Shown piece after piece: positions 5,126 to 28,939 of a stretch of DNA of 64,000 nt. The stretch covers positions 12,575-76,574 of the IMG/VR virus record IMGVR_UViG_3300032144_000002; one strand, 5' to 3'. A program made the position numbers and the translations under genes. The notes beneath the pieces are model-generated. The model was not told the origin of the DNA, made no database searches, and was given only the letters and a program-made list of their open reading frames with translations. The stretch is from a virus. Taxonomy: Duplodnaviria > Heunggongvirae > Uroviricota > Caudoviricetes. Position 1 is the first letter of the stretch, and each line of letters opens with the position of its first letter.

Positions 5126-5135
5126 GAGTAAAGCG

Positions 5136-5588: not shown

Positions 5589-5589
5589 G

Positions 5590-5913
5590 ATGATCGACAA
5601 GAGCAAACTTCTGGCTGACGCTGCAGCACTCCGCACCGATACGGTCGTCATCGAGGGACAGACGTTGACCGTGCGCGAGTTCGCTGCGGATGCGTTCGCG
5701 GAGTATGGCGCGGCTGCCGATGCTGGCAAGAAAGCGCAGTTCGCTATCGCCATCAAGGCGTGCGTGATCGATGAGGAAGGGAACGAAGTGTTTACCGCAG
5801 AAGAGGCTGCGGTCATGGCGCGCACTACGCGTACTTCCATGAAGATCATCAACAAGGTCATGGAACTCAGCGGCTTCAAGGAGGATACCGAAAAACATTC
5901 TGACGCCGGCTGA
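5590..5913 (+). CDS. Tail assembly chaperone (gpG-like)
   Basis: 107-aa acidic protein between major tail protein and tape measure; followed by overlapping T-frame ORF. Confidence 0.6.
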   Translation: MIDKSKLLADAAALRTDTVVIEGQTLTVREFAADAFAEYGAAADAGKKAQFAIAIKACVIDEEGNEVFTAEEAAVMARTTRTSMKIINKVMELSGFKEDTEKHSDAG

Positions 5914-8307: not shown

Positions 8308-8309
8308 CC

Positions 8310-8912: not shown

Positions 8913-9808
8913 GCCGTTCAGTATCTAGCGAGCTGCAAGCGCATCTTGACAGCGGTATGACGACAACCTGCAGACTGCTGAAGGTTAAATCTGGTGGCGA
9001 TACGCCGGTAATCTTCGGGCTGACCTCACTCGATATCGATGTCGCCTATGACGACGGATCTGGCGACGGCGAGGTCGTGTACTCTGCAACTCGAGGATTC
9101 GATCCCACCGCCATGCGCTCTACTGTTGGGTACGGTATCGACAATGCCGAAGCTAAAGCTCTGTTGTCCGCGGATGTTGAAGGCGTCACCGCCGCTATGG
9201 TAGATGCGGGTGTCTTCGATGACGGCACATGGGTCTGCTATATGGTCAACTACAAAGACTTGACAATGGGGCACATTGAGCTTGGCGGCGGCGATATCGG
9301 TGACATACATACGCGCTACGGTATGGTTTGGATTCCCGAGTTACTAGACACGATGGTTCGATTGAAGCAGCCTGTCGGTGTAGTCACTTCTCGTAAATGT
9401 CGCGCGATCTTCGGTAATCCGGCTACCCAAGAATACCGACAGACTGGCTGCGGCGTCGACGTGTCGGCGATGTGGACCGCCGGAGTAGTTCAGTCCGTGG
9501 ATGGCGCTGAGTCGAACAGAATATTCACTGGCGACGCTCTGGCGACTCCTCATTCGTACCCGGGCCGAGTTCGGTTTACTACCGGTGACAACGTTGGGCG
9601 CGTCTTCGCTGTCGAGGTAGTCACGGGGTTTGAGATAGAGCTCGTTGAGACTACGCCGTATCCAATCCAGGCTGGCGATGAGTATGAGATAAGACCAGAC
9701 TGCGGTAAGCGTTATGAAGAGGACTGCATCGAAGTGTGGAATAATGGCCCGAACTTCAAGGGAGAGCCGTTGATGCCTGACGGAAGCGAAGTGGCGGCAC
9801 CACAATGA
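8891..9808 (+). CDS. DUF2163 / BR0599-family phage tail protein (GTA ORFg13-like); true start may be ATG 8909
   Basis: LQAHLDSGMTTTCRLLKVKSGGDTPVIFGLTSLDIDV resembles TIGR02218 conserved N-terminus; conserved gene order. Confidence 0.7.
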   Translation: MRGYRSMSRSVSSELQAHLDSGMTTTCRLLKVKSGGDTPVIFGLTSLDIDVAYDDGSGDGEVVYSATRGFDPTAMRSTVGYGIDNAEAKALLSADVEGVTAAMVDAGVFDDGTWVCYMVNYKDLTMGHIELGGGDIGDIHTRYGMVWIPELLDTMVRLKQPVGVVTSRKCRAIFGNPATQEYRQTGCGVDVSAMWTAGVVQSVDGAESNRIFTGDALATPHSYPGRVRFTTGDNVGRVFAVEVVTGFEIELVETTPYPIQAGDEYEIRPDCGKRYEEDCIEVWNNGPNFKGEPLMPDGSEVAAPQ

Positions 9809-10227
9809 TCGCAGAAGACTTCGCAATGGCGGCCAAGACTTTTGTTGGCGCAAGATGGCGACACCGTGGACGTCAGCCCGGCGCAATGGATTGTCTCGGG
9901 CTGCTGTATCTGTCATCGGTCGCCGCTGGTGCGCCGTTTGAAGATGTGCGTGGCTACGGCCGGGAACCTTGGGACAATCAATTAACCACGGAGCTTGAAC
10001 GGCGATTTGGACTGCCGCTGTCTCTCAAGGACGTCAGAGTCGGGGATATCGCTCTGATCCGATGGGGGCTTGCTGAGCCGTCACATGTCGGCATTGTCAG
10101 TCGCCATCCAGACGGCGGTCTCACGTTGGTTCATGTACACACACTACTCGGATGCGTAGAGCAATCTTTAGTCGAGCCGATCTCAAGAGCGGTAGTCGCG
10201 GTGTACCGCCCGTGGGGTGACGAATGA
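9805..10227 (+). CDS. NlpC/P60-family cell-wall peptidase (GTA ORFg14-like tail-associated lysin)
   Basis: Catalytic Cys in GAMDCLGLLY and downstream His (SHVGIV, HVHT); ATGA overlap; canonical position. Confidence 0.7.
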   Translation: MIAEDFAMAAKTFVGARWRHRGRQPGAMDCLGLLYLSSVAAGAPFEDVRGYGREPWDNQLTTELERRFGLPLSLKDVRVGDIALIRWGLAEPSHVGIVSRHPDGGLTLVHVHTLLGCVEQSLVEPISRAVVAVYRPWGDE

Positions 10228-12461
10228 GCACCAGAGTCGTAATAGGTGGTCTTGGCGCTGCCGTAGGATTTGTCGTAGGCGGTGGTCCACAAGGAGCCAT
10301 GTGGGGATGGCAGATTGGTTCGATGATCGGCAATGTCGTGGATCCACAGATTATCAAAGGACCTTCTGTCGGCGACGTCAGCCAGCAGACTAGCCAGGAA
10401 GGAATCCCGATTCCCATCACATACGGTCTGTCGCCGCCAATCGCAGGGAACATTTCCGCGGCCGCGCCGCCAAATATCGTGCGCTCGCGTGAGAGCGGTA
10501 AGGGCGGGCCGAAGTACGAAACCGAAACTATTTACCGGACCTACGCCATCAATTTCTGTGAAGGACCAATCGGTGGGTTCAGACGAGTCTGGCGAAACAA
10601 TGTCAAGGTATACGACATTGATGACCCTGTTTTCAACTTGGGTATAGACTTTTCTGACGTCATTGATGGCGCGGTCATTGAATCTAGAAATACGAAGTTT
10701 CTGCAGAAGGCGCGCTTCTTCCTCGGCACGTATTCTCAAGCTGCGTCAACTGATCTTGAGGCAGTGTTCGGGGTCGGGGCTACGCCGGCGCATCGCGGCA
10801 TCGCTTACATGGTCATCGTCGACGAGGATACGACGGCTGAGGGCGGGATCATCCCGTACTGGCAGGCGCAGGTAGACGCCACGGCGCCAGCAGTGCTTAC
10901 GAATCCAACGCCGCTCGGTGTGCAAGATGACATCACGCCGGTAGAAATCGGCGCGGTGACTTCGCAGGTATCTGGAACTTTCTACGTTGTTGTTGGTCTT
11001 GGCTCTGATCTCGTTGGAGTCACAGCCGCGCAGATCAAAGCTGGACAGAAAGCTAATGGCGCGGCAGCCATCGCCGCCGAAGATTCTTCGGTGGGCGACA
11101 GCACGCCGAGCGTTTCAATCTCTGGATTGTCAGCCGGGCTGTTGTACAAGTTCGCTGCCGTGCAGGAGAACGCCAACGGGTTCAGCAATCTTGTATACGG
11201 CAATTTCAAGGAATTGAACCTGCCGACATTGACATCTCCAGTGCCGTCTGGGGAACTTGAAGACATGACCGAGGCTACGGTCGGTGCTACTACCGATCAG
11301 GTTGCTGGTGGTATCTATATTGTCTTAGGAACCGGCTCGACGCTTACGGGGATCACTGCCGCGCAGATCCTTGACGGGCGACAGGCAAACGGAGCGCCAG
11401 CGCAGCATGCGGCAAACGATTTCGTAAGTAGCTCGACGCCAACTATCCATTTCGAGGGGTTGAACGTTGGTACGCTGTATCATTACGCGATAGTTCAGCA
11501 GACTACTGTAGGACTTAGTAACGTGGTGACCGGTGAATTTACGACGTGGGACGGTCTCGCGCCTCCTGGTGAGGTTGAATATACGGAGGACGGTACGTGG
11601 AATAAACCAGCGAACCTCGACTACATCATCGTTACGTTGATCGGTGCTGGTGGCGGCGGTGGCTCCGGCAACGTTACTAACAATATCAGTAACGGTAGTA
11701 TGACGCCGCGTAATGGCGGTGGAAGCGGCGCGTACAGAAGAGTCCAGATTTACGAAGCTTACCTGCCTTCCTCTATGCCGGTAATCGTCGGTGTTGGTGG
11801 TGCTGGAGCATCGGCCAATACTGCGTCCCCACCCGGCGGAGGTACACCGACCGTCGCTGGCTCGGATGGAACGAGAGGAACAGCGTCCATTTTTGGTGAC
11901 GTCGCCAGTGGCGCGGCTAACAAGTATTTTGCGGCGGGTGGGTATGACCCTAGCATCGGCATCAATACGCAAGGCGGCGCAGCGACGTCGTGGACGTTTG
12001 GGCAGTACGTAAACTTAGAGGTATATCAGGGCTCTCCGTCGTCAGGCAACCCCGGTCTCAAGGCGGCAGGTGGCGGGGGCGGGGGTGGCAACGTTTCCGT
12101 TAGCAGCGGTACGCCGATCCCTGTTGCGGGTGGAACTGGGGTTAACTGCGACAACCATGCTGTCAATGGTGGAACTGGAGGAACTGGAGGAACGTGGATG
12201 GGCGGTGACGGGTCAGTAGGCGGGTCGTCGTCTGACCCCGTAGCCGGTGGCGGCGGTGGCGGCGGTGGTGGCGCTGGCATCGTAGGATCAGGATCGGTCG
12301 CAGGCAACGGTGCCGACGGCGGAACTCCTGGTGGCGGCGGCGGTACAGGAGGCAATTGCCTGCTTAGTTCTAGCGGCGTCGGTAGTGGGTCAGGAACTGG
12401 CGGCGCCGGCGGTCGCGGTGGCGATGGTCGCGTTATCATCGAGCATTTTTACCTACCCTAG
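10224..12461 (+). CDS. Tail/baseplate hub-like protein: GTA-type N-terminal domain, two tandem ~100-aa FN3-like repeats, long C-terminal glycine-rich domain
   Basis: N-terminus IPIPITYG...IYRTYAINFCEGPI like GTA g15/lambda J N-region; repeats TPVEIGAVTSQVSGTFYVVVGLGS...LLYKFAAVQ and TEATVGATTDQVAGGIYIVLGTGS...LYHYAIVQ; residues about 470-740 are >40% Gly. Confidence 0.6.
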   Translation: MSTRVVIGGLGAAVGFVVGGGPQGAMWGWQIGSMIGNVVDPQIIKGPSVGDVSQQTSQEGIPIPITYGLSPPIAGNISAAAPPNIVRSRESGKGGPKYETETIYRTYAINFCEGPIGGFRRVWRNNVKVYDIDDPVFNLGIDFSDVIDGAVIESRNTKFLQKARFFLGTYSQAASTDLEAVFGVGATPAHRGIAYMVIVDEDTTAEGGIIPYWQAQVDATAPAVLTNPTPLGVQDDITPVEIGAVTSQVSGTFYVVVGLGSDLVGVTAAQIKAGQKANGAAAIAAEDSSVGDSTPSVSISGLSAGLLYKFAAVQENANGFSNLVYGNFKELNLPTLTSPVPSGELEDMTEATVGATTDQVAGGIYIVLGTGSTLTGITAAQILDGRQANGAPAQHAANDFVSSSTPTIHFEGLNVGTLYHYAIVQQTTVGLSNVVTGEFTTWDGLAPPGEVEYTEDGTWNKPANLDYIIVTLIGAGGGGGSGNVTNNISNGSMTPRNGGGSGAYRRVQIYEAYLPSSMPVIVGVGGAGASANTASPPGGGTPTVAGSDGTRGTASIFGDVASGAANKYFAAGGYDPSIGINTQGGAATSWTFGQYVNLEVYQGSPSSGNPGLKAAGGGGGGGNVSVSSGTPIPVAGGTGVNCDNHAVNGGTGGTGGTWMGGDGSVGGSSSDPVAGGGGGGGGGAGIVGSGSVAGNGADGGTPGGGGGTGGNCLLSSSGVGSGSGTGGAGGRGGDGRVIIEHFYLP

Positions 12462-12472
12462 GACACGGACAC

Positions 12473-14098
12473 ATGCCGACACTTCAGGAAATCTGCAGCG
12501 ATATCTGTACCCGCGCTGGTGTCACTTCAGATCTGGTCGACGTTACTGGCTTGCCGGATGTAGACGTAGACGGATTCGTAATGACCAATCAGTATCCGGC
12601 GTCACAGGCGTTGCAGGCGCTCGGGCAGATTTTTCTATTTGACGTCGCTAAGTACGACGGCAAGATTCGTTTCATACCACGCGGTGGTAACTCAGTCGCT
12701 ACTATCGCAGAATCGCAGCTCGTTGAAGATGAAGCGGAGATAGAAAGCCAGAAGCGCGGCGACTCTGTAGCCGTGCCGCGCACACTGCACTTGGCATACT
12801 ACGATACAGATAGTGACGCTCTGTCACCGCATAAACAAAGTAGCGATTTGACAGAGCACCGCAGATCTGTTGGTGAGATGGTCATCGACTCTGCTGTGGT
12901 GATGGACAAGGATCGCGCCGCTCGTACCGTGGTCATTGCGCACAAAGTAGCGCTAGAGGATAGAAAAGGGGAACTGAATTTTAGTCTGCCGGACAATTAC
13001 ATCTGGCTGACGCCTGCTGATATCGTTATCCTGCAGCACGATGGTAAGAGTGAGCGGATTCGGTTGCAGCAGGAAGATGTCATGGATGGATACCAGCAGT
13101 ACATAGCGCTACGCGACAGACAGAGCGCGGTGACTTCTGTTGTCGAAGGTATTCCGCCACCGATCATCGCACCGCCCCCATCCGAAGTCGTTGGTCCTAC
13201 ACTGGTACTGCCGATTGATATTCCGCTGCTTTCGGATACTGATGACGTGACTGGCTTGATGACCTACGCTGGCGTCACTGGGTTCACGGATGACTGGGCC
13301 GGAGCACTGGTTGAAATGTCACGTGACGGTGGATCGAATTACACTGAAAGCCGAAATGCGCCAGTAGCGGCTACTATCGGTGAGCTGACTAGCGTGCTGC
13401 CGAATCATCCTGCTGAGTATCCGGATGATACGCATGAATTCAGTGTCGAGCTCTACATGCCCGACGCAGAGCTGATTGAATCAACGTTCGAAGGGATGCT
13501 GAACGGTGAGAATCTCATAGCGATTGGCTCGCCGACGCTGGGCTGGGAACTATTGAACTTCTCTTCGGCCCAACAGAATGATACCAGCCCGCAGGTGTGG
13601 AACATATCCGGGCTATTGCGCGGGCGTAAGCATAGCGGTACTAGAGAGCACGCGGTTGGCGAATACTTTGTTGTTCTTGATCGTTCTAAGCTAGGTATCG
13701 TTCCGCTCGGTGTCGCGGATATCAGACGAGACCTGATGTTCAGAGCGACCAGCGCTGGCGAGGCGCTACCGACGTCGCCGGTGTCGATGGAATTCGTTGG
13801 TAAGACCCAAACCGAATATCCGGTAGGCTACCTGACTGCTGAGCGTGATGGGGCTGACATTCTTGTAGATTGGCAGGGAGCGCCGCGTCTCGGTTCTTGG
13901 ATGTCGGTGGCCAACGGAGTTAGCTTTGTAGGGTACAGAGTCACGGCTACGGACGGCGTCGATACGGTCACAGTTGATACACTGACGCCAGGAGCCACAG
14001 TCGATGCGTCTGGTCTCAGCGGCGAGGTTACGATTTCAGTTTCTGCGCGTAACAGTTTGACCGGGCTTGGCCCGGCTTCGGAGGTGATTGTTCCATGA
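12473..14098 (+). CDS. Host specificity / central tail fiber protein (Phage-tail_3, lambda J-like middle region)
   Basis: 541 aa directly after hub-like protein; conserved segments DVTGLPDVDVDGFVMTNQ, YIWLTPADIVILQHDG typical of GTA g15/J-like proteins. Confidence 0.55.
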   Translation: MPTLQEICSDICTRAGVTSDLVDVTGLPDVDVDGFVMTNQYPASQALQALGQIFLFDVAKYDGKIRFIPRGGNSVATIAESQLVEDEAEIESQKRGDSVAVPRTLHLAYYDTDSDALSPHKQSSDLTEHRRSVGEMVIDSAVVMDKDRAARTVVIAHKVALEDRKGELNFSLPDNYIWLTPADIVILQHDGKSERIRLQQEDVMDGYQQYIALRDRQSAVTSVVEGIPPPIIAPPPSEVVGPTLVLPIDIPLLSDTDDVTGLMTYAGVTGFTDDWAGALVEMSRDGGSNYTESRNAPVAATIGELTSVLPNHPAEYPDDTHEFSVELYMPDAELIESTFEGMLNGENLIAIGSPTLGWELLNFSSAQQNDTSPQVWNISGLLRGRKHSGTREHAVGEYFVVLDRSKLGIVPLGVADIRRDLMFRATSAGEALPTSPVSMEFVGKTQTEYPVGYLTAERDGADILVDWQGAPRLGSWMSVANGVSFVGYRVTATDGVDTVTVDTLTPGATVDASGLSGEVTISVSARNSLTGLGPASEVIVP

Positions 14099-14448
14099 GC
14101 ACGTACACAGAAATTCCATACATACCGGAGAACACGGATGATCCGGTCGCGGCGCTTAATCTAGCGCTTCGTGTAATCCGAGCGCTCACGCAAACATGCG
14201 TCATAAGCATGGCGTTGACTGCACCTCCTGGTAGCGTTAACGACGGCGACAAGTACATTGTGGGTAGCGGAGCTACCGGGGACTGGGCAGGCATGGACGG
14301 CTATCTCGCGGAATACGTCGCACTGAGCGATACGTGGGATTTCTTCGCGCCCGGTACGCTCGCTAATTTCGTCGTCAATCTTGCGGATGGTAAGGCGTAT
14401 TACCATGATGCTGATGGCTCGCCTTCGGAGTGGATAGAACTGACTTGA
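14095..14448 (+). CDS. Small conserved tail-associated protein (unknown function)
   Basis: 117 aa, ATGA overlap with host specificity gene; YIVGSGATGDWAGMDGY motif. Confidence 0.35.
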   Translation: MSTYTEIPYIPENTDDPVAALNLALRVIRALTQTCVISMALTAPPGSVNDGDKYIVGSGATGDWAGMDGYLAEYVALSDTWDFFAPGTLANFVVNLADGKAYYHDADGSPSEWIELT

Positions 14449-14463
14449 TTTGCGGAGAAGTCC

Positions 14464-14889
14464 ATGCCTGATAAGCTCGGTCTCTTGTCTGAAGGGTTTA
14501 AACTCAACACAGAGGAGCGCGGATTGATTATCCGCGTACTATGGGTGGTCATTGTGACTGTCAACATTTTCTGGTTCCATGGATGGCTGGCTTTCGCGGG
14601 GCTGGCGTCGCCATTCGCGACGGCCACTGACGTGAAGAAGGTCGAGGAAGCTGTAGTCGCCAGCACACAGCCGCTAGCTGCGGGATTCAAGGCGAACATA
14701 GAAGCCGCGATCATCGCTCTCGAAGAAGACATTGATGTCATGAGCGCACGGCAAGCAGCCGCGCCTTCTCAATGGACTGAACTCGACCAGCGAATACTCA
14801 GCAGAAAGAGACAGCAGTTGGCGAGCCAGAGAAGCGCGCTCGCTGCGATCGTAGAGTCTCAGGTAGAGTCGAAGAAGACTGCAAGATGA
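14464..14889 (+). CDS. Membrane protein (one or two N-terminal TM helices plus coiled-coil tail)
   Basis: IIRVLWVVIVTVNIFWFHGWLAFAGLAS hydrophobic segment; RBS GGAGAAG upstream. Confidence 0.35.
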   Translation: MPDKLGLLSEGFKLNTEERGLIIRVLWVVIVTVNIFWFHGWLAFAGLASPFATATDVKKVEEAVVASTQPLAAGFKANIEAAIIALEEDIDVMSARQAAAPSQWTELDQRILSRKRQQLASQRSALAAIVESQVESKKTAR

Positions 14890-15488
14890 CCGTCAAGTGC
14901 TTCTTGGTTAAGCCGGTAGGTCGCGTGCGTCTTTACGCGCGGCGCTACCGGCTCTCGTCAAAAGACGCGTGTCCCGGCAAGATGTCCTACCACGACGAAA
15001 GGGTCCTCATAGACACGGTGCCTGCATCCGTTGTCGACGGTGTACTGAAGTACGATGAGCCAGTACTCGCCGAGGATGATCAACGTTGGCCAGCCGCTTG
15101 CAACTGTGGCCGCGCGTTTACCGCCGATGACGAGCGCCAGATCTTTGCCGAAGAAATCTACGCCGACGAGAAGGGACGCGAGTACGTCCTGTCTGACAAC
15201 ATTCCAGGCATGATGTACGACGCTACGTGGATGCACGACCACAAAGCGTTCTGTGGACCGGATGGCAGATCTATCCATGTCGTTTGTCCAGATGGCCACG
15301 CATGGTGCATTGATTCGCGGTGTCGCAATTGTACGCTGCCGAATGACAACGAGCACAAGTGCTGGGTTCGGCACGGAGAGCCGCCGGTGATTACAGTCAA
15401 CAAGAAGGGCAAGACCTGTTCTGCTGGCGGCGGATCGATTGACACAGGAACCTACCACGGGTTTCTACAGGATGGAAAGTTCACATGA
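14886..15488 (+). CDS. Cysteine-rich hypothetical protein (putative metal-binding)
   Basis: About 14 Cys and several His in 200 aa (CNCGRAF, CGPDGRSIHVVCPDGHAWCIDSRCRNC); overlaps neighbours by 4 nt. Confidence 0.35.
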   Translation: MTVKCFLVKPVGRVRLYARRYRLSSKDACPGKMSYHDERVLIDTVPASVVDGVLKYDEPVLAEDDQRWPAACNCGRAFTADDERQIFAEEIYADEKGREYVLSDNIPGMMYDATWMHDHKAFCGPDGRSIHVVCPDGHAWCIDSRCRNCTLPNDNEHKCWVRHGEPPVITVNKKGKTCSAGGGSIDTGTYHGFLQDGKFT

Positions 15489-16093
15489 GTAAGGCGATGG
15501 TCGGACCGGTTCGCGGGTTTGAGTGGGAGCTATGGAAGCGGTGGCTTAAACCCGGCGCCTCAATTCTTGAGCTCGGCAACAAAAAGAACTCGGTAGGAGT
15601 CTACAAGCCGTTCCTAGAATCGCTAGGATATCGACATGTCAGCGTCGATATCAATGGGCTCGATGGCGCAATCCCACTTGATCTACGCGAGCCGGTCCGG
15701 CCAGAGCTTGCAGCGCTCGGGCTGCCAATTGAATACGATGTCTTGACGAACAGCGGCGTCATCGAACACGTCATCCCAAATCAAGCGGCAGCGTGGCGCA
15801 ACGCTTTCGAGCTTGTCAAAGTCGGCGGAGTACAGATCCACGTTACGCCGGCGGCTGGGCACTGGATCGCGCATGGTCTGTATCATCCCACCGAAGAATT
15901 CTTCAGGCAGATGGTCGCTCTCAACGGAATGAGCCTACTCTTCATGGATGAGTATCGCTGGACAAAGGGTAAGGTTCTCACTCGTGCCGTGCTTAGGAAG
16001 GAGCATGACAGCGCGTTCAATTACCCGGGTGACGAGCATCTTTTCAAGACGCCCGACTGCATAGAATTAGAAAGCAGAGGAGAAGGACAGTGA
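15485..16093 (+). CDS. Class I SAM-dependent methyltransferase
   Basis: ILELGNKKN glycine-rich SAM loop, VLTNSGVIEHV motif II-like segment, 202 aa. Confidence 0.5.
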   Translation: MSKAMVGPVRGFEWELWKRWLKPGASILELGNKKNSVGVYKPFLESLGYRHVSVDINGLDGAIPLDLREPVRPELAALGLPIEYDVLTNSGVIEHVIPNQAAAWRNAFELVKVGGVQIHVTPAAGHWIAHGLYHPTEEFFRQMVALNGMSLLFMDEYRWTKGKVLTRAVLRKEHDSAFNYPGDEHLFKTPDCIELESRGEGQ

Positions 16094-16674
16094 AGGGATT
16101 GACTTCTGATGACTTCAAGATCGCGGCCGGTATCCTAGGCACTAATGTCTACGCCGTCATGGCGGTGGCAGAAGTGGAGGCTGCTGGTAGCGGGTTCTTT
16201 CCGAACGGCCAGCCGAAGATTCTGTTTGAAGCGCATATTTTCAGTCGCCTCACGAATCACCGGTATGACCTCACTCATCCGAATATCTCGTCACCGAAGT
16301 GGAGCAAGGTGCTGTACCTCGGTGGTGCCCAAGAACACACGCGTCTGCAGGCAGCGGTAACGCTCGACCGCGACGCTGCTCTACAGTCTGCGTCGTGGGG
16401 GATGTTCCAGATCATGGGGTTCAATTACACACGATGTGGTATGCCTGATCTTCAGACATTCATCAACCGGATGTACGAATCCGAAGGGCAGCAGCTTCGG
16501 TTATTCTGTAATTTCGTCGTGTCGATGGGACTGGCTGACGAGCTTCAGCGGAATGACTGGGCTGGCTTCGCGCGCGTGTACAACGGGCCGAGCTACGCAG
16601 AGAACCAGTATGACACCAAACTGTCGCGCGCGTATACGCGGCTTACGAATGCTGAGACTGCGGTAGCCAGATGA
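16090..16674 (+). CDS. Endolysin, N-acetylmuramidase of the DUF3380 family
   Basis: SWGMFQIMGFNY and YNGPSYAENQYDTKL are signature segments of DUF3380 muramidases; followed by holin and spanins. Confidence 0.7.
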   Translation: MKGLTSDDFKIAAGILGTNVYAVMAVAEVEAAGSGFFPNGQPKILFEAHIFSRLTNHRYDLTHPNISSPKWSKVLYLGGAQEHTRLQAAVTLDRDAALQSASWGMFQIMGFNYTRCGMPDLQTFINRMYESEGQQLRLFCNFVVSMGLADELQRNDWAGFARVYNGPSYAENQYDTKLSRAYTRLTNAETAVAR

Positions 16675-16913
16675 TGAACAGCAACAGACTTGTAGCGGCA
16701 GCGCAGATCGCGCTGTCAATTGTCTACACGTGGGGATACTTTGATGTTCTGAAGATATTCCTCGAAGGGCGCGTGAAGACCCCGAGTGAATGGAAAGATG
16801 TTGTGACTGCGTTGATAACGCTGCTGACTGCCGGAGTCTTGATGATTCTGCAGTTCTGGTTCCTTCGCAGTCGCCAGCAGGAGGCGCCGCCGGCGCCGAA
16901 AGAATTGGGTTGA
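16671..16913 (+). CDS. Holin (class II, two TM helices)
   Basis: 80 aa with two hydrophobic helices and charged C-terminus; ATGA-coupled to endolysin. Confidence 0.55.
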   Translation: MMNSNRLVAAAQIALSIVYTWGYFDVLKIFLEGRVKTPSEWKDVVTALITLLTAGVLMILQFWFLRSRQQEAPPAPKELG

Positions 16914-16945
16914 GTAGTAAAGTGTGGAAGTAAAGGAGAGATGAC

Positions 16946-17782
16946 ATGTGGCTCATTTGGATGTTGATTGGTGCTGCTCTCGGTTTCGTGGGAGCGTTGG
17001 TCTGGGAACGTATCGCGCCGAACAAGGTCGACAAGTTCGTCGCGAAGCACGAGGCTGAGATCAAGGAATCACTGGTGAAGAAGGGAGTGCTGAAGGCTGT
17101 GGCCGTGTTCGGTGTCGCGTGCATGCTGGCCAGTCTGGCGGCGCAAGCTACCAATACGCCTCCGCCAGCGGAGAAGCCGGTGGCCAACGCGAATGCGAAC
17201 GCATACGCTGGCGCAAAGTCCCACGCCGACGCGGATGCAACCGCTACGCAGAGCCAGACTGTTACTGTCACGCCTACTGCGAATGGCGGTGCCGGTGGCG
17301 CTGGCGGTGCTGCGGACGCCAATGCATCGCAGGAGCAGAGCGCTTACTCCGGTGACGTCAGCAACGATATCTCGTACAGCAGTTCGTACACGGAGCGACG
17401 GCAGGCCCCGTCAATCAGTGCGCCGACTGTTTACGCGAGCGGCAGTTGCTCTTACGGATGGTCGGTCGGTCTGAGCCTTCCGGGCGGGGGTGCTTCTGGC
17501 GGCAAGTCGACGCCGGACAAGGACTGCAACCGCCGCGAGCTCGCACGCATGGTGGCGCCATTGAACCCGTGGCTAGCATTGAAGGTGCTGTGCGAGGACC
17601 CGATTATCGTAGAGATGCGTCTGCGCAATCTGTCGTCGGAGCTGGACTGCGAGTACGTTCCACCAAAGCCGACAGTAGCAGCGGCGACGCCCGTCGAACC
17701 ACCGAAGGCCGAGCGTGAGTACAAGGACTACGTGACGCGGCCTGAGATGGAAGAGGTCATAAGGCGGTCTCTGTCCAAGTGA
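16946..17782 (+). CDS. Membrane protein in lysis cassette (two N-terminal TM helices, low-complexity Ala/Asn/Gly-rich and Cys-containing C-terminal region); function unknown
   Basis: Strong RBS AAAGGAGAG; TM helices LIWMLIGAALGFVGALVW and VLKAVAVFGVACMLASLAAQA. Confidence 0.35.
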   Translation: MWLIWMLIGAALGFVGALVWERIAPNKVDKFVAKHEAEIKESLVKKGVLKAVAVFGVACMLASLAAQATNTPPPAEKPVANANANAYAGAKSHADADATATQSQTVTVTPTANGGAGGAGGAADANASQEQSAYSGDVSNDISYSSSYTERRQAPSISAPTVYASGSCSYGWSVGLSLPGGGASGGKSTPDKDCNRRELARMVAPLNPWLALKVLCEDPIIVEMRLRNLSSELDCEYVPPKPTVAAATPVEPPKAEREYKDYVTRPEMEEVIRRSLSK

Positions 17783-18258
17783 ACAGAGTCGCGCTGATCG
17801 TCGCTGCTGTCATCATTGCCGGACTGGCTATCGCGTGGCGCACTGATCGTGCCAAGTACGGAAGTCAACGGTTCGATGACGGCAAGGCGGAAGTTCAAGC
17901 GCAATGGGATGCGTCGGTGGTCAAGGCTACTGCCGATGCTCTCGTTGAAGAGGAACGAAGGAGACTATACAATGCGAGTGTTCTCGAGGAGCGCGATGCG
18001 AGGCTTGCTGCCGCTGCTGGTCGCGCCGATGATCTTGAGCGTCGGTTGCGGCGGGCACTTGCCCGCTCGTGTAGCAGCGGTGTGCCCCAAGCTGGAAGTC
18101 AGCCCGGAGCTTCTGTCGGAGTCGTCGATTCAGGAAGCGACGAGAGCGAGGGAGGAGCTTCTGAAATCGTTGCCCGAATGAAGCGGTATGACGCGGCGTG
18201 CTTGACGCTGATCGAGGATCACAGCGCCTTGATCAAGGAAGTCAAACCGCAAATGTGA
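17779..18258 (+). CDS. i-spanin (Rz-like), GTG start overlapping upstream stop
   Basis: N-terminal TM helix then highly charged coiled coil (EERRRLYNASVLEERDARLAAAAGRADDLERRLRR); contains embedded lipoprotein ORF in +1 frame. Confidence 0.6.
   Translation: MNRVALIVAAVIIAGLAIAWRTDRAKYGSQRFDDGKAEVQAQWDASVVKATADALVEEERRRLYNASVLEERDARLAAAAGRADDLERRLRRALARSCSSGVPQAGSQPGASVGVVDSGSDESEGGASEIVARMKRYDAACLTLIEDHSALIKEVKPQM
17972..18181 (+). CDS. o-spanin (Rz1-like outer-membrane lipoprotein) embedded in i-spanin gene
   Basis: MRVFSRSAMRGLLPLLVAPMILSVGCGG signal peptide with lipobox-like SVGC; GGAG RBS about 10 nt upstream of ATG 17972; entirely within 17779-18258 in another frame. Confidence 0.5.
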   Translation: MRVFSRSAMRGLLPLLVAPMILSVGCGGHLPARVAAVCPKLEVSPELLSESSIQEATRAREELLKSLPE

Positions 18259-18273
18259 GCGGGCAAAATCAAA

Positions 18274-18300
18274 GGCCCTCAGCCATGCGGGCTGAGGGCC
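18274..18300. terminator. Bidirectional intrinsic terminator between convergent arms
   Basis: Perfect 11-bp GC stem GGCCCTCAGCC-atgcg-GGCTGAGGGCC; on the minus strand it is followed by TTTGATTTTGCC (U-run), on the plus strand by TTGAT. Confidence 0.6.
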
Positions 18301-18640
18301 TTGATACGCAACAATAAGCATTGCAACGGTAACGCCCGCGCCTAGCATGCTGGCGGCCAGCATTGCAAGGGTTTATTTAACAATAATGGGCCGCGCCAGC
18401 CGGCCTAGGGGCCTCTAATGGCCGGAATGGGCGGCCCCGCCATACCGCTACGGCAGCCAGCCTAGGCAGCCTGCTAGGCCGGTGCCCGGGGCTGCTTAGG
18501 CGGGGCCTGTGCCCTACTGGCGGCCCGGTGCGGCCCCGCCAGCCGGTGCCTGCCCCGGTGCCCCGCCCCCGGGGGCGGCCCCTGTAGGTGCTAATAGGCC
18601 GGCTGGCGCGGCCCGGTTAAGGGCGCGGCAAACCGCCTGA
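18300..18640. repeat. GC-rich repeat island R1 (shares motifs with islands at about 48960-49280, 54780-55200, 63400-63550)
   Basis: Direct repeat AGCATTGCAA x2 flanking palindrome AGCATGCT; multiple CCTAGG sites; GGCCGGCTGGCGCGGCC element also present in island R2. Confidence 0.45.
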
Positions 18641-19260
18641 GCCATCTCAGCGTCGTCAGCGCGGCACACCCATGCGTTGAGCTTGTGGTCGCGCACTGAC
18701 AGGCCATCGGCTCCGATCAGGTAGCGGTCAATCGGCTCGACCGGAGGTTCGGCAGGATGCAGGTTCGAACCTTCATCGCGATGCGCGTCCCAGGTGTGTT
18801 CAAGCATCCGCCGGTTTAGCTCCGCTGCCTCGGCTTCGGGCATGACTTTGATGTCTTGCAGCCGGGTGGCGTCGATGTACCGGTCGATGACAAAGCTGGC
18901 TTCTTGCAGCTCTGCCTGATTGCCGGTGGCCTGCCACTTGAGAAGGAACCCAACGACCGTGCCTTGGTAGTAGTCGAGATCGAATAGCGCGATGATCTCG
19001 TCCAACGTGTACGCGCCATCCGGTGGCGCGTTGACGATGACAATGCGTGGGTCGCTGCAGAGCTCTACGTACTTGGCGAGGTAATGCTTGGACTTCTCCA
19101 AGTCTTGCAGACCGTTCTTGTCACGCCACCTGAACAGGTACTTGGTGATGTTGCCGACGTAGTAGCCCCATCCGTTCTTGGCCACCAGATCCCAGTGCTG
19201 CACGCTACCGCGCTTGCTGTAATGATTGCCGCCGATTTGAACCTTGTTTGCTTCGCTCAT
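18514..19260 (-). CDS. DUF3310-family phage protein (nucleotide-metabolism associated); start at internal ATG 19260 with GGAG RBS; C-terminal Gly/Ala/Pro tail runs into GC island and may be over-extended
   Basis: KVQIGGNHYSK (GGxHY-type motif) and conserved YLAKY region; track ORF extends to 19335. Confidence 0.45.
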   Translation of the reverse strand: MSEANKVQIGGNHYSKRGSVQHWDLVAKNGWGYYVGNITKYLFRWRDKNGLQDLEKSKHYLAKYVELCSDPRIVIVNAPPDGAYTLDEIIALFDLDYYQGTVVGFLLKWQATGNQAELQEASFVIDRYIDATRLQDIKVMPEAEAAELNRRMLEHTWDAHRDEGSNLHPAEPPVEPIDRYLIGADGLSVRDHKLNAWVCRADDAEMAQAVCRALNRAAPAGLLAPTGAAPGGGAPGQAPAGGAAPGRQ

Positions 19261-19574
19261 GCCAATCTCCAAACGAGCACCGCCACCAGCGCCCCTACTA
19301 TAAGACCCGCACTGACCTTCCCGATGAAGGCCCACGCACTCTCCGTCATCAGACCGACAACAGACTGTTGAACATCGGTCTCAGGTACTGAAGGCGCTGC
19401 GACTGCAGTGCCAATCTGAGCACCGCAGTCGCTGCAGCGATACATCACGCCGCCCGACAGTGTACTGATGTCAATCCACTTGCCACCGCACTTCGGTGTC
19501 TTGTGCATGTGCGCCAGATCGTCGCTGCTGAACCCGAGACGATCAAGGTCCATAGAGCGTACCATCGCGAACAC
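19257..19574 (-). CDS. Zinc-ribbon protein with C-terminal TM anchor
   Basis: CGGKW...CSDCG cysteine pairs; C-terminal AGLIVGALVAVLVW. Confidence 0.3.
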   Translation of the reverse strand: MFAMVRSMDLDRLGFSSDDLAHMHKTPKCGGKWIDISTLSGGVMYRCSDCGAQIGTAVAAPSVPETDVQQSVVGLMTESAWAFIGKVSAGLIVGALVAVLVWRLA

Positions 19575-20105: not shown

Positions 20106-21194
20106 TCACTCGACACCTCCACCACGGCGCGTCATCCACTGGATGCCAGCGAACTGCCAGTCGCAGTCTGGCATGGCGTTCTCCATGATTGCGATAGCGT
20201 TCATGGCGCGCCGGTGCTTCTCGGGCACCGAATCGTTCTTGTACACACGCCACGCCAGCCGCATCGGTTCGGCCACCTCTTTGAAGAAGCGGAAGCTGGT
20301 GCCGCGTCCTTCACAGAAGCTGACGCACTCCGCCAGCCACTTCTGCCAGTCGGCAGGCTGCAGCCCGGTGAACAGCGGGAACGTGCCGGTGCCGATATCC
20401 TGGTACGGATCGATCCGGTAGTCCGGGTTCTCGCACACATTCTTCCACGCTGGCTGATCCGTGTACACGTGGAAGCTGTCGCTCACCTGTCGGTAGATTC
20501 CGACCGGCACGCCGACGGCGCTGGCGATGAACTCCTGCAGCGTGCTGAACTGTACGATATTGGCACCATACGCGCCCCATATGATGTCGTTGCTGCGGCA
20601 GGCCACGGTCATGTCGAGCGCGCCGTCCCTGATCTTGAACATCAGCAGGTCATTGCACGGCATGTCCTTGGTCTTCCTGCCAAGATCAAGGTACGGGTTC
20701 CAGATCGACAACACCACCTGCCGCGTGCTGTGGTCCTTGCTCAGCAGGTCGATGGCCACGGCGATCTGGTCAAGCGTACCGGATTCGCTCATCGGGCCGA
20801 TGCCGGTGTCGTACTCGATGTCCGGTACATCCCAGTTCCGCAGCCGGTAGCCGTAAGGCGCATGGAACTCTTCGCCGTTGTCGCTGTACGCGGCGATGTT
20901 GGTGTTGAACTCCTTCAGGAAGGCCACGTCTTTGCGACCTGCCAGAATCCACAGACTCTCCATCAGATGGAAGAACGGGTTGGCGTCACGGTGTGGAGAC
21001 CAGAGGACACGTTCCACTGGCTCCTGGTATTCGGTGATGACAGGCCCTCGGTATTCGAGGGTCTGAAGTCCACGTGGTGAGATGTCGCGCCAGTAGTAGT
21101 CGCGGCGCGGGTCACGAAGCATCGAGCGTACCCTCGACAGGGCTTGGTTGACATTGCGAACGCGGATGATGGTCGCCTCATTCAAAGTGCTCAT
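20106..21194 (-). CDS. Thymidylate synthase (ThyA)-family pyrimidine C5 one-carbon transferase with about 90-aa N-terminal extension; substrate (dUMP/dCMP; methyl vs hydroxymethyl) not determinable by eye
   Basis: FHLMESLWILAG (folate-binding helix), VVLSIWNP, MPCNDLLMF (catalytic Cys in PCH-like motif), ACRSNDIIWG (RSCD-like) align to ThyA core. Confidence 0.8.
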   Translation of the reverse strand: MSTLNEATIIRVRNVNQALSRVRSMLRDPRRDYYWRDISPRGLQTLEYRGPVITEYQEPVERVLWSPHRDANPFFHLMESLWILAGRKDVAFLKEFNTNIAAYSDNGEEFHAPYGYRLRNWDVPDIEYDTGIGPMSESGTLDQIAVAIDLLSKDHSTRQVVLSIWNPYLDLGRKTKDMPCNDLLMFKIRDGALDMTVACRSNDIIWGAYGANIVQFSTLQEFIASAVGVPVGIYRQVSDSFHVYTDQPAWKNVCENPDYRIDPYQDIGTGTFPLFTGLQPADWQKWLAECVSFCEGRGTSFRFFKEVAEPMRLAWRVYKNDSVPEKHRRAMNAIAIMENAMPDCDWQFAGIQWMTRRGGGVE

Positions 21195-26238: not shown

Positions 26239-27330
26239 CTACTCCTCGTCGTCGTACACGACGCGCGGTTCGCGTGGCGGATGGTAACGGCTGCGCGGCC
26301 TGCCCTCGTCCATCTTGACCCGCATGTACTTGTCGAACTCGCATAGCGAATGCTCGATTTCACGCAGCTCAAGCGGGCAATCGACACCAGTGCGCAGGTG
26401 CTTGCGCAAATCCTCCGGCATCGCCGCTAATAGCATGCGCATCGCTTCGATGTAGTCGATGCCTCCTACCTTCGTATGCTTACCATACATCAGGCGACGG
26501 ATGCCGCGCATGGCACCGGGTCCCGGGTTGGCCCACGAAAGTACGTCCTTCGCGCGGTGCAGCACCTTGGTGAACCGCAGGTCGCAGGCCAGCTCGTAAC
26601 CGATGAATCCGCCGATGGTAGGTACACTCATCAGCACTTCAACGGCGTACTGCATTGAAGGTCCTTCGTATTGATTGGTGCCCGGTATCTTGCGGCCGCG
26701 CCGTATCTTGTTGGCCAGCTTGATCTTGCGCTTCCACACATAGTCGACTGCGTCGCAGATGACTTCGATCTTCGGGTCGTCGCGCCCGCCGTTCGGAATG
26801 ATGTACGCGCCGGTGAAGATCTGCTCGTGGTCTTCGTCCTTGCGCTTGGTGAGGATGCGTATCGCGTCCTTCTTGTCCCACTTCTTCATGCCGAAGTACA
26901 GCGCATCGTAGGTCTCTGGCAGATTGAACAGCCGGAACATCACGTTGTGAAAAAGGATGTCGCTGGCCAGAACCTTCTTGGTGCCATTAGCCGAATTGAT
27001 CAGGTTGATATAGCGGTCTTGCCAAGCTAGACTGACGCGGTCGAGCTGGCGGTACACGTTGGTGAACTTGAACTCGTTTAGGATTCGATCCTGCGTCCAT
27101 GGGTACGGCGCTTTGTCCTTGAAGCGCTTCAGGTAGATGGCGTGGCGCTCGCTCATCCAATACCAGAACAGCTTCAGCTGCGCTGCCAGAAACTTGATCT
27201 TGGGTTTCTTCTTCGGCTTCTCCACCGACTTCGGCGAGTGCTTGCTGGCTATGCCGACGCGCGTAGCCTTCAGTCTGATTACACCGCGCACCAGCTTAGC
27301 TTTCTTCTTTCGCTTCACTTGTGACCTCAC
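26239..27330 (-). CDS. Conserved hypothetical protein with Lys-rich N-terminal tail (possible nucleic-acid binding) located at the head of the modification cluster
   Basis: 363 aa; N-terminal KRKKKAKL...KPKKKPKIK; conserved-looking core WYWMSERHAIY...NVYRQLDRVS; no family recognised by eye. Confidence 0.4.
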   Translation of the reverse strand: MRSQVKRKKKAKLVRGVIRLKATRVGIASKHSPKSVEKPKKKPKIKFLAAQLKLFWYWMSERHAIYLKRFKDKAPYPWTQDRILNEFKFTNVYRQLDRVSLAWQDRYINLINSANGTKKVLASDILFHNVMFRLFNLPETYDALYFGMKKWDKKDAIRILTKRKDEDHEQIFTGAYIIPNGGRDDPKIEVICDAVDYVWKRKIKLANKIRRGRKIPGTNQYEGPSMQYAVEVLMSVPTIGGFIGYELACDLRFTKVLHRAKDVLSWANPGPGAMRGIRRLMYGKHTKVGGIDYIEAMRMLLAAMPEDLRKHLRTGVDCPLELREIEHSLCEFDKYMRVKMDEGRPRSRYHPPREPRVVYDDEE

Positions 27331-27541: not shown

Positions 27542-28939
27542 TTACTCGGCGACGATGAAGCCCTTCTTGATGAAGCGTGGAACCCACGTCTTCACCTTGG
27601 CCGGCGCGATGCCTTCTTCCTTGGCAGCCGCCAGCAGCTTCTTGAACGTGATGCCCGACTTGGGGATCAGTTCGTTGGCCAGCTTGGACTTCGGCCCACC
27701 GCCGGGGCGCTTCTTGCCGCGCTTCAGCTTGGTGGAATCCTCCAGCTTGAACTTGGCCGGCTTCTCAGCCTTCTCGGCCTTCGCCTTCTTGGCCGGTTTC
27801 TCGGCCTTCGCCTTCTTGCCCTTCTTCGCTCTCACTTCCTTCTCCTCGTCGTCTTCGTCGTCCTCGTCGTCCTCGCCGTCTTCCGAGTCATCGTCCTCGT
27901 CGTCGGCGTCCTTGGCCTTCTTGCCCTTGGCTTTCTTGCCCTTGGCGAAGCCCTTGGCCTTGGGCTTCTTCTTGCCCTTCTTGGGCTCTTCGTCATCCTC
28001 GTCTTCCGAGTCCTCGTCTTCCGAGTCCTCGTCTTCCGAGTCTTCGTCTTCGTCGTCCGACTCATCGTCCTCGTCGTCCGACTCGTCATCCTTGGCCTTC
28101 TTGCCACCCTTCGCCTTCTTGCCCTTCTTGCCCTTGGGCTTCTCGTCTTCGTCCTCGTCTTCCGACTCGTCGCCACCTTCGACGGTTTCTTCGTCCTCGT
28201 CTTCGTCGTCGGCCGCCTCGGCCTCCATCGCCTTCATGGATGCCTTGCGCAACTCTTCATCACTCATCTTGTCCTCCTTCGAGGGACGTTTCTTGGATTC
28301 GACGGGCCACTCATCAAGCACAGTGCGGTCCGTCAGCCGCAGCGTGCCTTTCTTCTCCACGACCTTGAATGCTTGCAGCATCAAGTGTCTGGCGAAATTG
28401 AATGCTTCAGACCATGTCTTCGTGTTCAGACCAATGGGCGCTTCATCAGCGGTCAGCGCCGTGCGTATCAGAATCGAGAGTTCGGTCCACGACAGCGCGC
28501 TCAATATCGAGATAATCTCGTACATGAACTCGCCGTCGGCCTTCTTCTCTTCCAGATACTCGCGGTACTTCGGGGGCTTGCGCTCCTTCCGCTTGCACGC
28601 ATCAATGAACTCATCAAACAAGTTGCTGGTGTAGACCGGGATCTTTTCCTCGTTGATCAACGCCAGCCGTAGGTCCTCGCCACGCAGACTGGTGCCGTGT
28701 CGCTTCTTGCTCTTGCGTCCCTGCTTGGCTTCGGCGCTGGCTTCTTGTCGGCGCTTTCCGGCTTTGCTGTACTGCTTGAGCTCTTCGCGCGTACTCGGCA
28801 CAAAGCCTTTGGTCACGGTAGAGCGCTGTTCCACTTCCAAGGTCATGCGCTCTTTGCCCTTGCGGCGTTTCTTCTTGCGAGGGCGCTCTTCTTGATCTTC
28901 TGCTTCGTCGTCCTCGTTACGCTGCTTCCCGAAACCCAT
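27542..28939 (-). CDS. Polyampholyte protein 1: folded N-terminal domain followed by about 200 aa of poly-Asp/Glu tracts alternating with Lys-rich KKGKKAK blocks
   Basis: Runs of (E/D)10-30 separated by KGKKAKGGKKAK; consistent minus-strand codon usage; mirror-strand ORFs are Ser-rich artefacts. Confidence 0.55.
   Translation of the reverse strand: MGFGKQRNEDDEAEDQEERPRKKKRRKGKERMTLEVEQRSTVTKGFVPSTREELKQYSKAGKRRQEASAEAKQGRKSKKRHGTSLRGEDLRLALINEEKIPVYTSNLFDEFIDACKRKERKPPKYREYLEEKKADGEFMYEIISILSALSWTELSILIRTALTADEAPIGLNTKTWSEAFNFARHLMLQAFKVVEKKGTLRLTDRTVLDEWPVESKKRPSKEDKMSDEELRKASMKAMEAEAADDEDEDEETVEGGDESEDEDEDEKPKGKKGKKAKGGKKAKDDESDDEDDESDDEDEDSEDEDSEDEDSEDEDDEEPKKGKKKPKAKGFAKGKKAKGKKAKDADDEDDDSEDGEDDEDDEDDEEKEVRAKKGKKAKAEKPAKKAKAEKAEKPAKFKLEDSTKLKRGKKRPGGGPKSKLANELIPKSGITFKKLLAAAKEEGIAPAKVKTWVPRFIKKGFIVAE

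Follow-up and report, generated by a model that had tools for sequence, protein, structure and literature searches.

The composite terminator/promoter cassettes of T4-like phages known as PeSLs (PMC2839356, PMC4122927) are the closest functional analogy for four islands, first described as GC-rich, that we analyzed in the genome of an uncultured tailed phage. The window, our name for the whole 64,000-nt stretch analyzed (positions 12,575 to 76,574 of IMG/VR record IMGVR_UViG_3300032144_000002), covers most of a genome totaling ~76 kb; the islands R1 (18300-18640), R2 (48960-49280), R3 (54780-55200), and R4 (63400-63550) were picked out at its module boundaries by an earlier, sequence-only reading. 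We think it likely that they are the main intergenic and control regions of the phage and share a small regulatory vocabulary, rather than being descendants of one repeat element. Like PeSLs, they consist of short conserved promoter and hairpin modules, are intergenic at gene-block borders, and have neighbors whose gene content varies. In R1 and R3 a hairpin adjoins a promoter, and two relatives (L085 and L086; close relatives are few) have a small gene after the R1-type promoter that the window lacks. Unlike PeSLs, to which they have no sequence relation, they belong to a different phage lineage, carry three core copies per 64 kb rather than dozens, and are GC-rich and 300 to 400 bp long, with one leading into a 550-nt structured RNA.

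That RNA recalls the large ornate RNAs GOLLD, ROOL, and OLE (PMC12286853, PMC5737381) in size and complexity: it is ~550 nt long and multi-helix, has long invariant unpaired stretches (CCUGAACCCUAACCCUAGCA), and comes from metagenomic phage genomes. In contrast to them, it matches no Rfam family even at E ≤ 1, is represented by four sequences so far, and lies directly upstream of small open reading frames (ORFs) without a terminator; thus, it may be a cis-acting 5′ untranslated region. Other comparisons are looser. Repetitive extragenic palindromes (REPs) stabilize mRNA 3′ ends, and R1, which like REPs and bacterial interspersed mosaic elements has GC-rich imperfect palindromes in a transcribed intergenic 3′ region, could do likewise for its operon mRNA; unlike those elements, the 19-mer arm common to R1 and R2 is not multicopy in any of 185,579 species genomes, and the islands have neither a ~35-bp repeat unit nor a RAYT transposase. 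Rickettsia palindromic elements (RPEs) are selfish insertions located in frame within genes; R2 is likewise in frame in an ORF and absent from a homologue, but it is single-copy, is not palindromic overall (fold z = −0.6), and has no family of copies. At transcript-primed replication origins (ColE1 RNA II and the T7 and T4 origins) the parallel is pure analogy: the R3 promoter would be followed by a ~550-nt structured, GC-rich, untranslated transcript and the phage encodes a family-A DNA polymerase, but R3 lacks an AT-rich unwinding element, and the iterons are in R4.

To collect relatives, we queried with three proteins (the primase, the DUF3310 protein, and the product of the R2 ORF) and then looked up the contigs of the matches. 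Phage "B" (L003 and L086, two contigs of sample SRR24200879 that we infer to be one phage) has a primase 78% and a DUF3310 protein 47% identical to those of the window, and the primase of L004 is 74% identical. Next come L088 (primase, 48%), phage "C" (the 66.5-kb contig L087, presumably together with L085; primase, 47%; DUF3310, 42%), L108 and L109 (about 46%), L093 (45%), and L006, L007, and L008 (43%). Logan contig L002 is identical to window positions 63966 to 54432, and a 76,574-bp JGI contig also carries the window sequence. IMG/VR scans with the MazG-like, DUF3310, and primase proteins found one distant locus or none, and in a metagenome scan with a primase profile the relatives among the matches listed were all ≤44% identical. 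Among 50,697 cultured-phage records there was no DNA-level match to R1 with its flanks or the structural genes (near and distant searches) or to the R3 RNA; the nearest cultured-phage proteins, from Pseudomonas, Stenotrophomonas, and Xanthomonas phages, are ~30% identical.

The sequence-only reading had offered three roles for the islands: binding sites for a regulator, phage-specific promoters, or host REP-like elements. Promoters are the best supported, if only in part, since words that the islands share are kept as promoter parts in relatives; these promoters look σ70-like rather than specific to a phage RNA polymerase, and no RNA polymerase was found among the scanned ORFs. The core TATAAGGTGTG, which had been noted in R2, R3, and R4, is present exactly three times in the window, once in each of these islands (49083 plus, 54992 plus, and 63489 minus) and nowhere outside them (0.01 copies expected; 0 of 100 shuffles reach this count). 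The word TTGCAACGG, in extended form ACCGTTGCAA, is indeed common to R1 (one copy) and R3 (two copies; 3 in all versus 0.13 expected; 0 of 100 shuffles). Comparison with relatives shows ACCGTTGCAA to be a predicted −35 module of a σ70-like promoter, TTGCAACGG being the −35 region read on the opposite strand, and CACACC-TTATAAT, or CACACCTTATA (the reverse complement of TATAAGGTGTG), to be a predicted spacer end plus the start of the −10.

The predicted promoter of the R3 RNA (54990-55024, minus strand) has the −35 sequence ACCG-TTGCAA, with its hexamer at 55020-55015, a 19-nt spacer ending in TTGCACACCT, and a TATAAT −10 at 54995-54990. On the gene strand the window reads GTACCG-TTGCAA-caacccctgTTGCACACCT-TATAAT-AAGGTG, and the same site in L087 and L088 reads GTACCG-TTGCAA-cggcccgcaTTGCGGACC-TATAAT-AAGGTG (TTGCAA-N18-TATAAT); the window minus-strand words GTACCGTTGCAAC...TTGCACACCTTATAATAAGGTG align there with GTACCGTTGCAACGGCCCGCATTGCGGACCTATAATAAGGTG. 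Close variants in L093, L109, and L006-L008 have TTGCAA or TTGCAC, a 17- to 18-nt spacer, and TATTAT or ATATAT (TTGCAC-N17-TATTAT in L006-L008; N17-TATTAT also in L109). Position and orientation are kept in L087, L088, L093, L109, and L006-L008, all on the gene strand. ACCGTTGCAA occurs once per island-type region in L085, L086, L087, L088, and L093, on the gene strand every time, and the −35 word is also kept downstream of the DUF3310 gene in L085 and L086. At R3 and in the relatives the −35/−10 hexamers are thus placed as in σ70 promoters, 16 to 19 nt apart and facing the downstream gene. That the 11-mer might instead be a promoter firing in the TATAAGGTGTG direction was ruled out by gene-strand TTGCAC-CACCT-TATWAT in L109 and L006-L008. 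All three CACACCTTATA copies face downstream genes (the RNA and following small genes for R3, the next leftward gene block for R2, and the HNH gene for R4), and there are no near-variants elsewhere in the window; thus, the islands look like promoters of three transcription units plus one operon end, and four GC-rich patches become a transcription map with three promoter cores aimed at three gene blocks. The R3 −10, together with the downstream AAGGTG, lies in a 17-bp palindrome, CACCTTAT-T-ATAAGGTG, which by its position would suit a repressor.

The conserved structured RNA of ~550 nt at R3 (54435-54984, minus strand) extends from a predicted start to just before the next start codon (ATG, 54434), the GC-rich left half of R3 forming its 5′ domain; it would be transcribed from the promoter described above. 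R3 as first described held only the promoter region and the 5′ domain, and the RNA extends ~350 nt farther. Every relative covering the region has a gene-free stretch of 650 to 750 bp amid the small genes downstream of the primase, with an AAA ATPase gene farther downstream in L087, L088, L093, and L109. We aligned window positions 54984 to 54435 (minus strand) with L087, L088, and L093 over the whole ~560 nt (alignment A3; 77% mean column identity). RNAalifold predicted 146 pairs in 26 helices from this alignment, and 50 of the 146 pairs have compensatory changes on both sides, compared with 4 to 10 when partners are slid by 1 to 3 columns. Standard pairs fill 93.9% of cells versus 33 to 40% in the slid controls, and 0 of 500 column shuffles reach any of the observed measures. 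G-U pairs outnumber A-C pairs by 54 to 6 on the RNA strand, as would be expected if the minus strand is the RNA, although the count is biased, the fold having been predicted on the same strand.

The R3 RNA is as conserved as core genes: its DNA identity to relatives is 0.69 to 0.72 overall and 0.73 to 0.81 over the first 190 nt, whereas the primase gene reaches 0.65 and the AAA gene 0.72. No genes were called over the region in four genomes (L002, L087, L088, and L093), and ORF 54542-54775, inside the RNA, is probably spurious. Invariant parts include a 5′ hairpin with the self-complementary loop UAGCUA, which by our own reasoning could mediate RNA-RNA contacts, and the long unpaired CCUGAACCCUAACCCUAGCA; further CTAG-type features are a CUAG tetraloop and the invariant CCCUAGCA. 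At 54951 a CCTAGG forms the tip of a covarying hairpin, and two of the three relatives have a GNRA-like loop there. Rfam 15 gave no match at the gathering threshold in the window, L006, or L008 (GOLLD, ROOL, HEARO, riboswitches, and introns included), and at E ≤ 1 over 54200-55250 only a spurious long noncoding RNA match (E = 0.97). We found no intrinsic terminator between the RNA and the start codon at 54434; hence, the simplest reading of the fold is a long structured leader, with a processed RNA that acts independently as a possible alternative. Few large structured RNAs of unknown function are known, and unexpected architectures have turned up in several of them. Absent from Rfam and from the cultured-phage records, the R3 RNA appears to be previously undescribed and is a candidate for a novel large structured RNA; its covariation is unusually clean, and it is conserved at the level of core genes across phages whose primases are only ~46% identical. 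Its lineage also encodes a 5-hydroxymethyldeoxyuridine (5-hmdU) DNA kinase, and relatives encode TET-associated glycosyltransferase (TAGT)-family proteins; if a host is found, the function of the RNA becomes approachable by experiment.

IMG/VR scans with three conserved words of the R3 RNA returned the L087 contig, plus coincidences within coding sequence in L089 and L092. In L090 (IMGVR_UViG_3300018073_000007), an otherwise unrelated viral contig of 66% GC, an intergenic 21-nt identity (GCGTCAGGCGTTATGCGCCGG, ~4037-4053) to an invariant hairpin of the RNA may be chance or a shared module. More distant relatives of the window have a gene-free region of 650 to 730 bp at the same place (L006, 13790-14513; L108, 12068-12726; L109, 14153-14882; also L007 and L008), with the same promoter and UAGCUA or GAGCUA near the predicted 5′ end; the rest has diverged beyond alignment, either because the family evolves fast or because another RNA has taken its place. 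The GC-rich spacer that separates the MazG-like gene from the R3 promoter (55025-55200, minus strand) has two CCTAGG sites and an additional, inverted copy of ACCGTTGCAA (55053-55062), and parts of the RNA 5′ end recur in it as direct duplicates (54950-54972 versus 55165-55187, 87% identity, and others). It is not specially structured (z = −0.76), which left its candidacy as a terminator unsupported. We also rejected the idea, raised by partial coverage of a PHROG profile, that R3 interrupts the MazG-like gene: the ORF looks complete, and the sequence downstream of it is noncoding in all relatives. Four minus-strand gene starts share a ~47-nt upstream block, ...CCATCAAC-N-AAGGAG-N7-ATGG (50620-50666, 53701-53747, 54190-54236, and 54431-54477), which in relatives precedes the first gene after the RNA; Logan assembly L002 breaks exactly at one copy. 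The block resembles the start-associated sequences of some mycobacteriophages.

R1 probably closes the long leftward operon at its convergent junction with the structural genes. A strong predicted intrinsic terminator (18272-18302, minus strand) combines a GC-rich 13-bp stem (18272-18284/18290-18302) with the U-tract UGAUUUUG; L085 and L086 have an equivalent hairpin after their small gene. Next to it, a putative relic promoter/operator block (18317-18372, minus strand) reads TTGCAATGCT, then AGCATGCTAGG, then GTTACCGTTGCAATGC. These are the AGCATTGCAA direct repeats (18317 and 18359) around the palindrome AGCATGCT (18344) that had been called a classic operator layout; the arrangement is as described, and what aligns with it in relatives is a conserved block upstream of a promoter (CATGCTAGG ... 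GTTACCGTTGCAA). The block includes ACCGTTGCAA at 18321-18330 (minus strand), and its TTGCAA is only 14 nt from TATCAA. Aligned by eye, it corresponds in L086 (GGCATGCTAGGGCAAGCGTTACCGTTGCAACG) and L085 to TTGCAA-N17/18-TACCGT before a gene of 69 to 83 aa that is missing from the window. At the equivalent site L085 and L086 have a 200- to 300-bp island of 76 to 81% GC with many CTAG-containing palindromes, followed by CATGCTAGG...GTTACCGTTGCAACG-N-TTGCGC-N-TACCGT, the 69- to 83-codon gene, and a terminator. We infer that the R1 block is the upstream part of this conserved promoter and that its small gene was lost in the window.

Farther upstream on the minus strand is a large hairpin of 227 nt (18388-18614), in which a perfect 20-bp inverted repeat (18388-18407/18595-18614) encloses 187 nt and is followed by AUUAUUGUU, a weaker tract than UGAUUUUG. 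With a terminator-like site at 18405-18389 and a fold z of −4.55 (a value that includes the 18272-18302 hairpin), it may be a terminator-like element or a 3′-end stabilizer. One arm lies within the coding tail of the DUF3310 ORF (18514-19335, minus strand), whose GC-rich 3′ end (18514-18620) encodes AAPAGLLAPTGAAPGGGAPGQAPAGGAAPGRQ, a tail of 32 residues rich in Pro, Ala, and Gly that ends at 18514 (GC at codon positions 1/2/3 [GC1/2/3], 0.87/0.82/0.72). The sequence-only reading was right that two islands are crossed by ORFs with Pro/Gly/Ala-rich products (18514-19335 into R1 and 48853-49554 through R2), but it judged such tails implausible, and for R1 that judgment is doubtful: the DUF3310 orthologues P0122, P0124, and P0125, from three other phages, end in comparable Pro/Ala-rich tails, and the tail is therefore probably translated.

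R4 is the divergent control region between the HNH and primase genes. Its promoter-core copy, CACACCTTATATA (63489-63501, plus strand), lies 51 nt upstream of the HNH start (63553) and faces rightward, and the same sequence is at the same place before an HNH-type ORF in L003. Between the primase and HNH genes are GGGTAT/ATACCC iterons in both orientations (63288-63376), including three tandem copies of GAGGGTAT (63290-63313; period 8, 3.5 copies) and two of ATACCCTC (63359-63375); all six window copies of GAGGGTAT are in 63290-63375 or at 55223. ATACCC repeats are kept in L003 and L004. Being at least three clustered copies beside a replication gene and conserved in relatives, the R4 iterons are a putative iteron-type origin or regulatory array. 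Two copies of the iteron word, GAGGGTA(T), lie apart from the cluster at 55216-55231 (minus strand), where the MazG-like ORF has its 3′ end.

Just upstream of the primase start (62830-62953, minus strand) is a 23-bp perfect inverted repeat, CCTCCATCAGGAACACGTCGGGC / GCCCGACGTGTTCCTGATGGAGG, whose 3′ arm includes a GGAGG ribosome-binding site. The stem is kept in L003 (~1110-1245), L004 (~410-545), and L088 (~935-1075) with different middle sequences, so the changes in it would be compensatory, and it looks like a device for translational control of the primase. The ~700-nt untranslated region from R4 to the primase also holds 2.5 perfect tandem copies of the 11-nt unit CATCACTGAAC (63014-63040) and a GCCGCAGCGATGCGGC hairpin (62990-63010); similar hairpins occur in L003.

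R2 (48990-49280, minus strand; 77% GC) lies in frame in ORF 48853-49554, forming about codons 98 to 190 of 233 and encoding a Pro/Gly/Ala/Gln/Arg-rich segment. The frame is open straight through R2, with three or four stops in each of the other two, and the GC1/2/3 values of R2 (0.85/0.72/0.76) are compatible with translation. The only detected homologue, P0134 (47% identity), aligns over residues 1 to 104, beyond which its sequence is ordinary and unrelated; no gene-free gap occurs at the corresponding site of L093, and among our loci no close relative covers R2. As a structured RNA R2 was ruled out: its fold is no better than that of shuffled sequence (z = −0.62). A promoter-core copy, CACACCTTATA (49083-49093, minus strand), lies inside R2 without a −35 box and faces the downstream minus-strand genes, and the 16-mer GGCCGGCTGGCGCGGC occurs in R2 and twice in R1, once in a different frame and once in noncoding sequence. 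The exact 11-mer core and the 16-mer shared with R1 in a different frame argue for constraint on R2 at the nucleic-acid level. R2 may be a lineage-specific insertion with an internal promoter core, which is the weakest part of our account, and it would be tolerated because GC-rich sequence rarely contains stop codons. Annotators should note that gene callers read through such stop-codon-poor islands.

Composition and word content do not make the islands one family. The claim that all four are GC-rich is borne out by R1 (69.5%), R2 (76.6%), and R3 (65.3%) but not by R4, which at 56.3% is no higher than the window (57.1%). Other GC peaks, at 12144-12449 in the window and in relatives, were discarded as further islands, as they are ordinary Gly-rich or otherwise normal coding sequence. 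CCTAGG, reported as frequent in the islands, is not unusual in the window as a whole (10 copies versus 6.4 expected), and seven of the 10 fall within the ~1.2 kb of islands, where local composition predicts 0.41 (0 of 2,000 local shuffles); CTAG occurs there 14 times versus 3.5 expected (11.4 per kb inside versus 0.96 outside). R2 is no part of this pattern, having no CCTAGG and only one CTAG. The GGCTGGCGC-type elements that were thought to unite the islands are over-represented throughout the window (10 copies versus 1.2 expected), with six of the 10 in ordinary coding sequence. Their positions include 2872, 4597, 5423, 7539, 34013, and 54119 besides the islands, mostly co-oriented with transcription; GGCTGGCGC resembles over-represented Chi-type octamers (GCTGGTGG in Escherichia coli) and may bear on host identity. 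The islands are not alignable with one another: pairwise BLAST finds only short common words of 11 to 23 nt. When 55 loci plus the window were searched for the RNA 5′ domain, by nhmmer and by covariance model, only the four training sequences were recovered, and R1, R2, and R4 are therefore not paralogues of the R3 RNA. What makes the islands GC-rich also differs from one to the next: RNA helices in R3, a hairpin and coding tail in R1, and a presumably translated insert in R2.

Our preferred reading gives the islands the following roles. The GC-rich half of R3 would be the 5′ domain of the structured RNA downstream of a σ70-like promoter; R1 would be the 3′ end of the leftward operon, with a Pro/Ala coding tail and with the 20-bp-stem hairpin and the intrinsic terminator stopping or stabilizing the transcript, and its promoter would be a leftover of the small gene still carried by relatives. 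R2 would be constrained as nucleic acid and happen to stay open in frame, so that it is translated as a low-complexity insert. High GC would reflect stable helices and stop-codon-poor sequence, and the CTAG-centered palindromes would in part be RNA features and might also be protein-binding sites. Several observations count against this reading. The covariation comes from four sequences only, and the same alignment served to predict and to test the structure; the covariance model fails on the syntenic regions of L006-L008, L108, and L109, the last two being unalignable even with filters off. R2 and the spacer upstream of the R3 promoter fold like shuffled sequence, so structure does not explain their GC-richness. 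The two-box layout is not present at every core copy: R2 (49083) and R4 (63489) lack a TTGCAA-like −35 at 16 to 19 nt, and with a −10 module alone they may need an activator or be operator sites instead. With its 19-nt spacer, the R3 promoter escaped a generic promoter scan, and every start site and terminator named here is a prediction. The CCTAGG enrichment, too, is lineage-specific, L086 using GGGCGCCC and L085 using CCCTAGG, a pattern that a co-evolving DNA-binding protein explains no less well than RNA features do.

Such a protein is central to the rival reading that we rate highest, though still as tentative: that the islands are binding-site arrays for phage DNA-binding proteins, with CCTAGG/GCCTAGGC, the GGGTAT iterons, and CACCTTAT-T-ATAAGGTG serving as operators or origin iterons. 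The 7 island copies of CCTAGG (0.41 expected) agree with it, as do the separate palindromes that cluster in each R1-type island (4 of 5 GGGCGCCC copies in L086; 4 of 5 CCTAGG copies in L085), the iterons in both orientations that adjoin the primase gene and are kept in L003 and L004, the embedding of the R3 −10 region in a 17-bp palindrome, and the GerE/helix-turn-helix proteins encoded in this gene block of relatives. No candidate regulator is tied to any site, however, the CCTAGG at 54951 is the tip of a covarying RNA hairpin, and in relatives the two most specific words have promoter boxes as their aligned counterparts; binding arrays can also coexist with the promoter and RNA functions that we favor. 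A bolder proposal, which we consider rather unlikely, is that the R3 RNA is not only a leader but represents a new class of large RNA that a clade of uncultured phages with thymidine-hypermodification genes makes early and that acts itself (as a scaffold, decoy, ribozyme, or self-assembling particle of the GOLLD/ROOL type), with the CTAG-centered loops (UAGCUA and CUAG), found also throughout R1, making RNA-RNA contacts and the island vocabulary being an RNA-level code. Protein coding competes on different ground: R2 and the first ~100 nt of R1 may simply encode disordered Pro/Gly/Ala-rich linkers or tails in which nucleotide motifs are incidental. We doubt this, in spite of the frame open for 233 codons against three or four stops in each of the others, an insert GC3 (0.76) equal to that of ordinary genes (0.71 to 0.81) with GC1 the highest position, 43 codons past R2 with a coding-like GC pattern, Pro/Ala-rich tails in all DUF3310 orthologues, and the lack of an RNA-structure signal in R2. 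Coding would leave as coincidences the exact 11-mer that R2 has in common with R3 and R4 (0.01 expected), the R1/R2 16-mer in different frames, and the arm of a perfect 20-bp inverted repeat in the R1 tail; in addition, the only detected homologue is without the R2 insert.

We consider it improbable that R1 and R2 owe their GC-rich segments to miniature mobile elements (like REPs, RPEs, or miniature inverted-repeat transposable elements) that spread within the phage or derive from the host and sometimes land in frame in genes. R1 alone has the form of such an element, its 187 bp being enclosed by perfect terminal inverted repeats of 20 bp; R2 repeats a 16-nt arm, R2 is in frame and absent from the relative's homologous gene, and GGCCGGCTGGC recurs in islands of L085, L086, and L088. 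But neither the window nor the fetched loci contain a second full copy, 18388-18614 has no target-site duplication (flanks AATAAT| and |GGTTAA) and no phage-database match, and the position of the R1-type island is constant among phages with DUF3310 proteins just 42 to 47% identical, which argues for an old resident feature. The host REP-like origin was rejected because the exact 19-mer TAGGCCGGCTGGCGCGGCC (the R1/R2 arm) has 14 matches in 185,579 species genomes, single-copy in each, though the host may be unsampled; at least 5 of the 14 are in what reads as a conserved Burkholderiales gene. Least credible of all is motif sharing as a chance by-product of GC-rich, low-complexity sequence. Short GC-rich words like GGCTGGCGC are common genome-wide, and most inter-island BLAST matches are of 9 to 17 nt with E > 0.1, so chance is a fair description of the GGCTGGCGC-type matches. 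For AT-containing words it is refuted: 0 of 100 shuffles reach the counts of either TATAAGGTGTG or ACCGTTGCAA, 0 of 2,000 local shuffles reproduce the CCTAGG clustering, and motifs and RNA are conserved in independent metagenomic relatives.

Plus-strand ORFs occupy 1-18258 of the window and are presumed to be structural genes; two of them were scanned and matched no family, and relatives have tail genes at the equivalent of the convergent junction. The long minus-strand block runs from 62828 down to 18514 and encodes a DUF3854/DUF5906 primase, a family-A DNA polymerase, an SNF2 helicase, a NAMPT-like enzyme, a thymidylate-synthase homologue, and a 5-hmdU DNA kinase; the HNH endonuclease gene starts at 63553 on the plus strand and continues past the window end. 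A tRNA/tmRNA scan found none. The kinase (Pfam HMUDK_hel, E = 5e-53) and the thymidylate-synthase homologue are encoded on the minus strand (26239-27330 and 20106-21194), and L085 and L086 additionally have two TAGT-family genes and an HD-domain (YfbR-like) protein. This gene content, including the thymidylate-synthase homologue and the kinase, places the phage among those with thymidine-hypermodification genes (PMC5889632, PMC8989533), and the clade probably hypermodifies thymidine, to judge from its genes. Two minus-strand ORFs without Pfam matches (27542-28939 and 43420-44724) encode long Asp/Glu-rich repeats that are related to each other, with Lys-rich stretches between them; these repeats (27750-28230 and 43470-43950) are the largest direct-repeat families of the window and show strong AT and GC skew.

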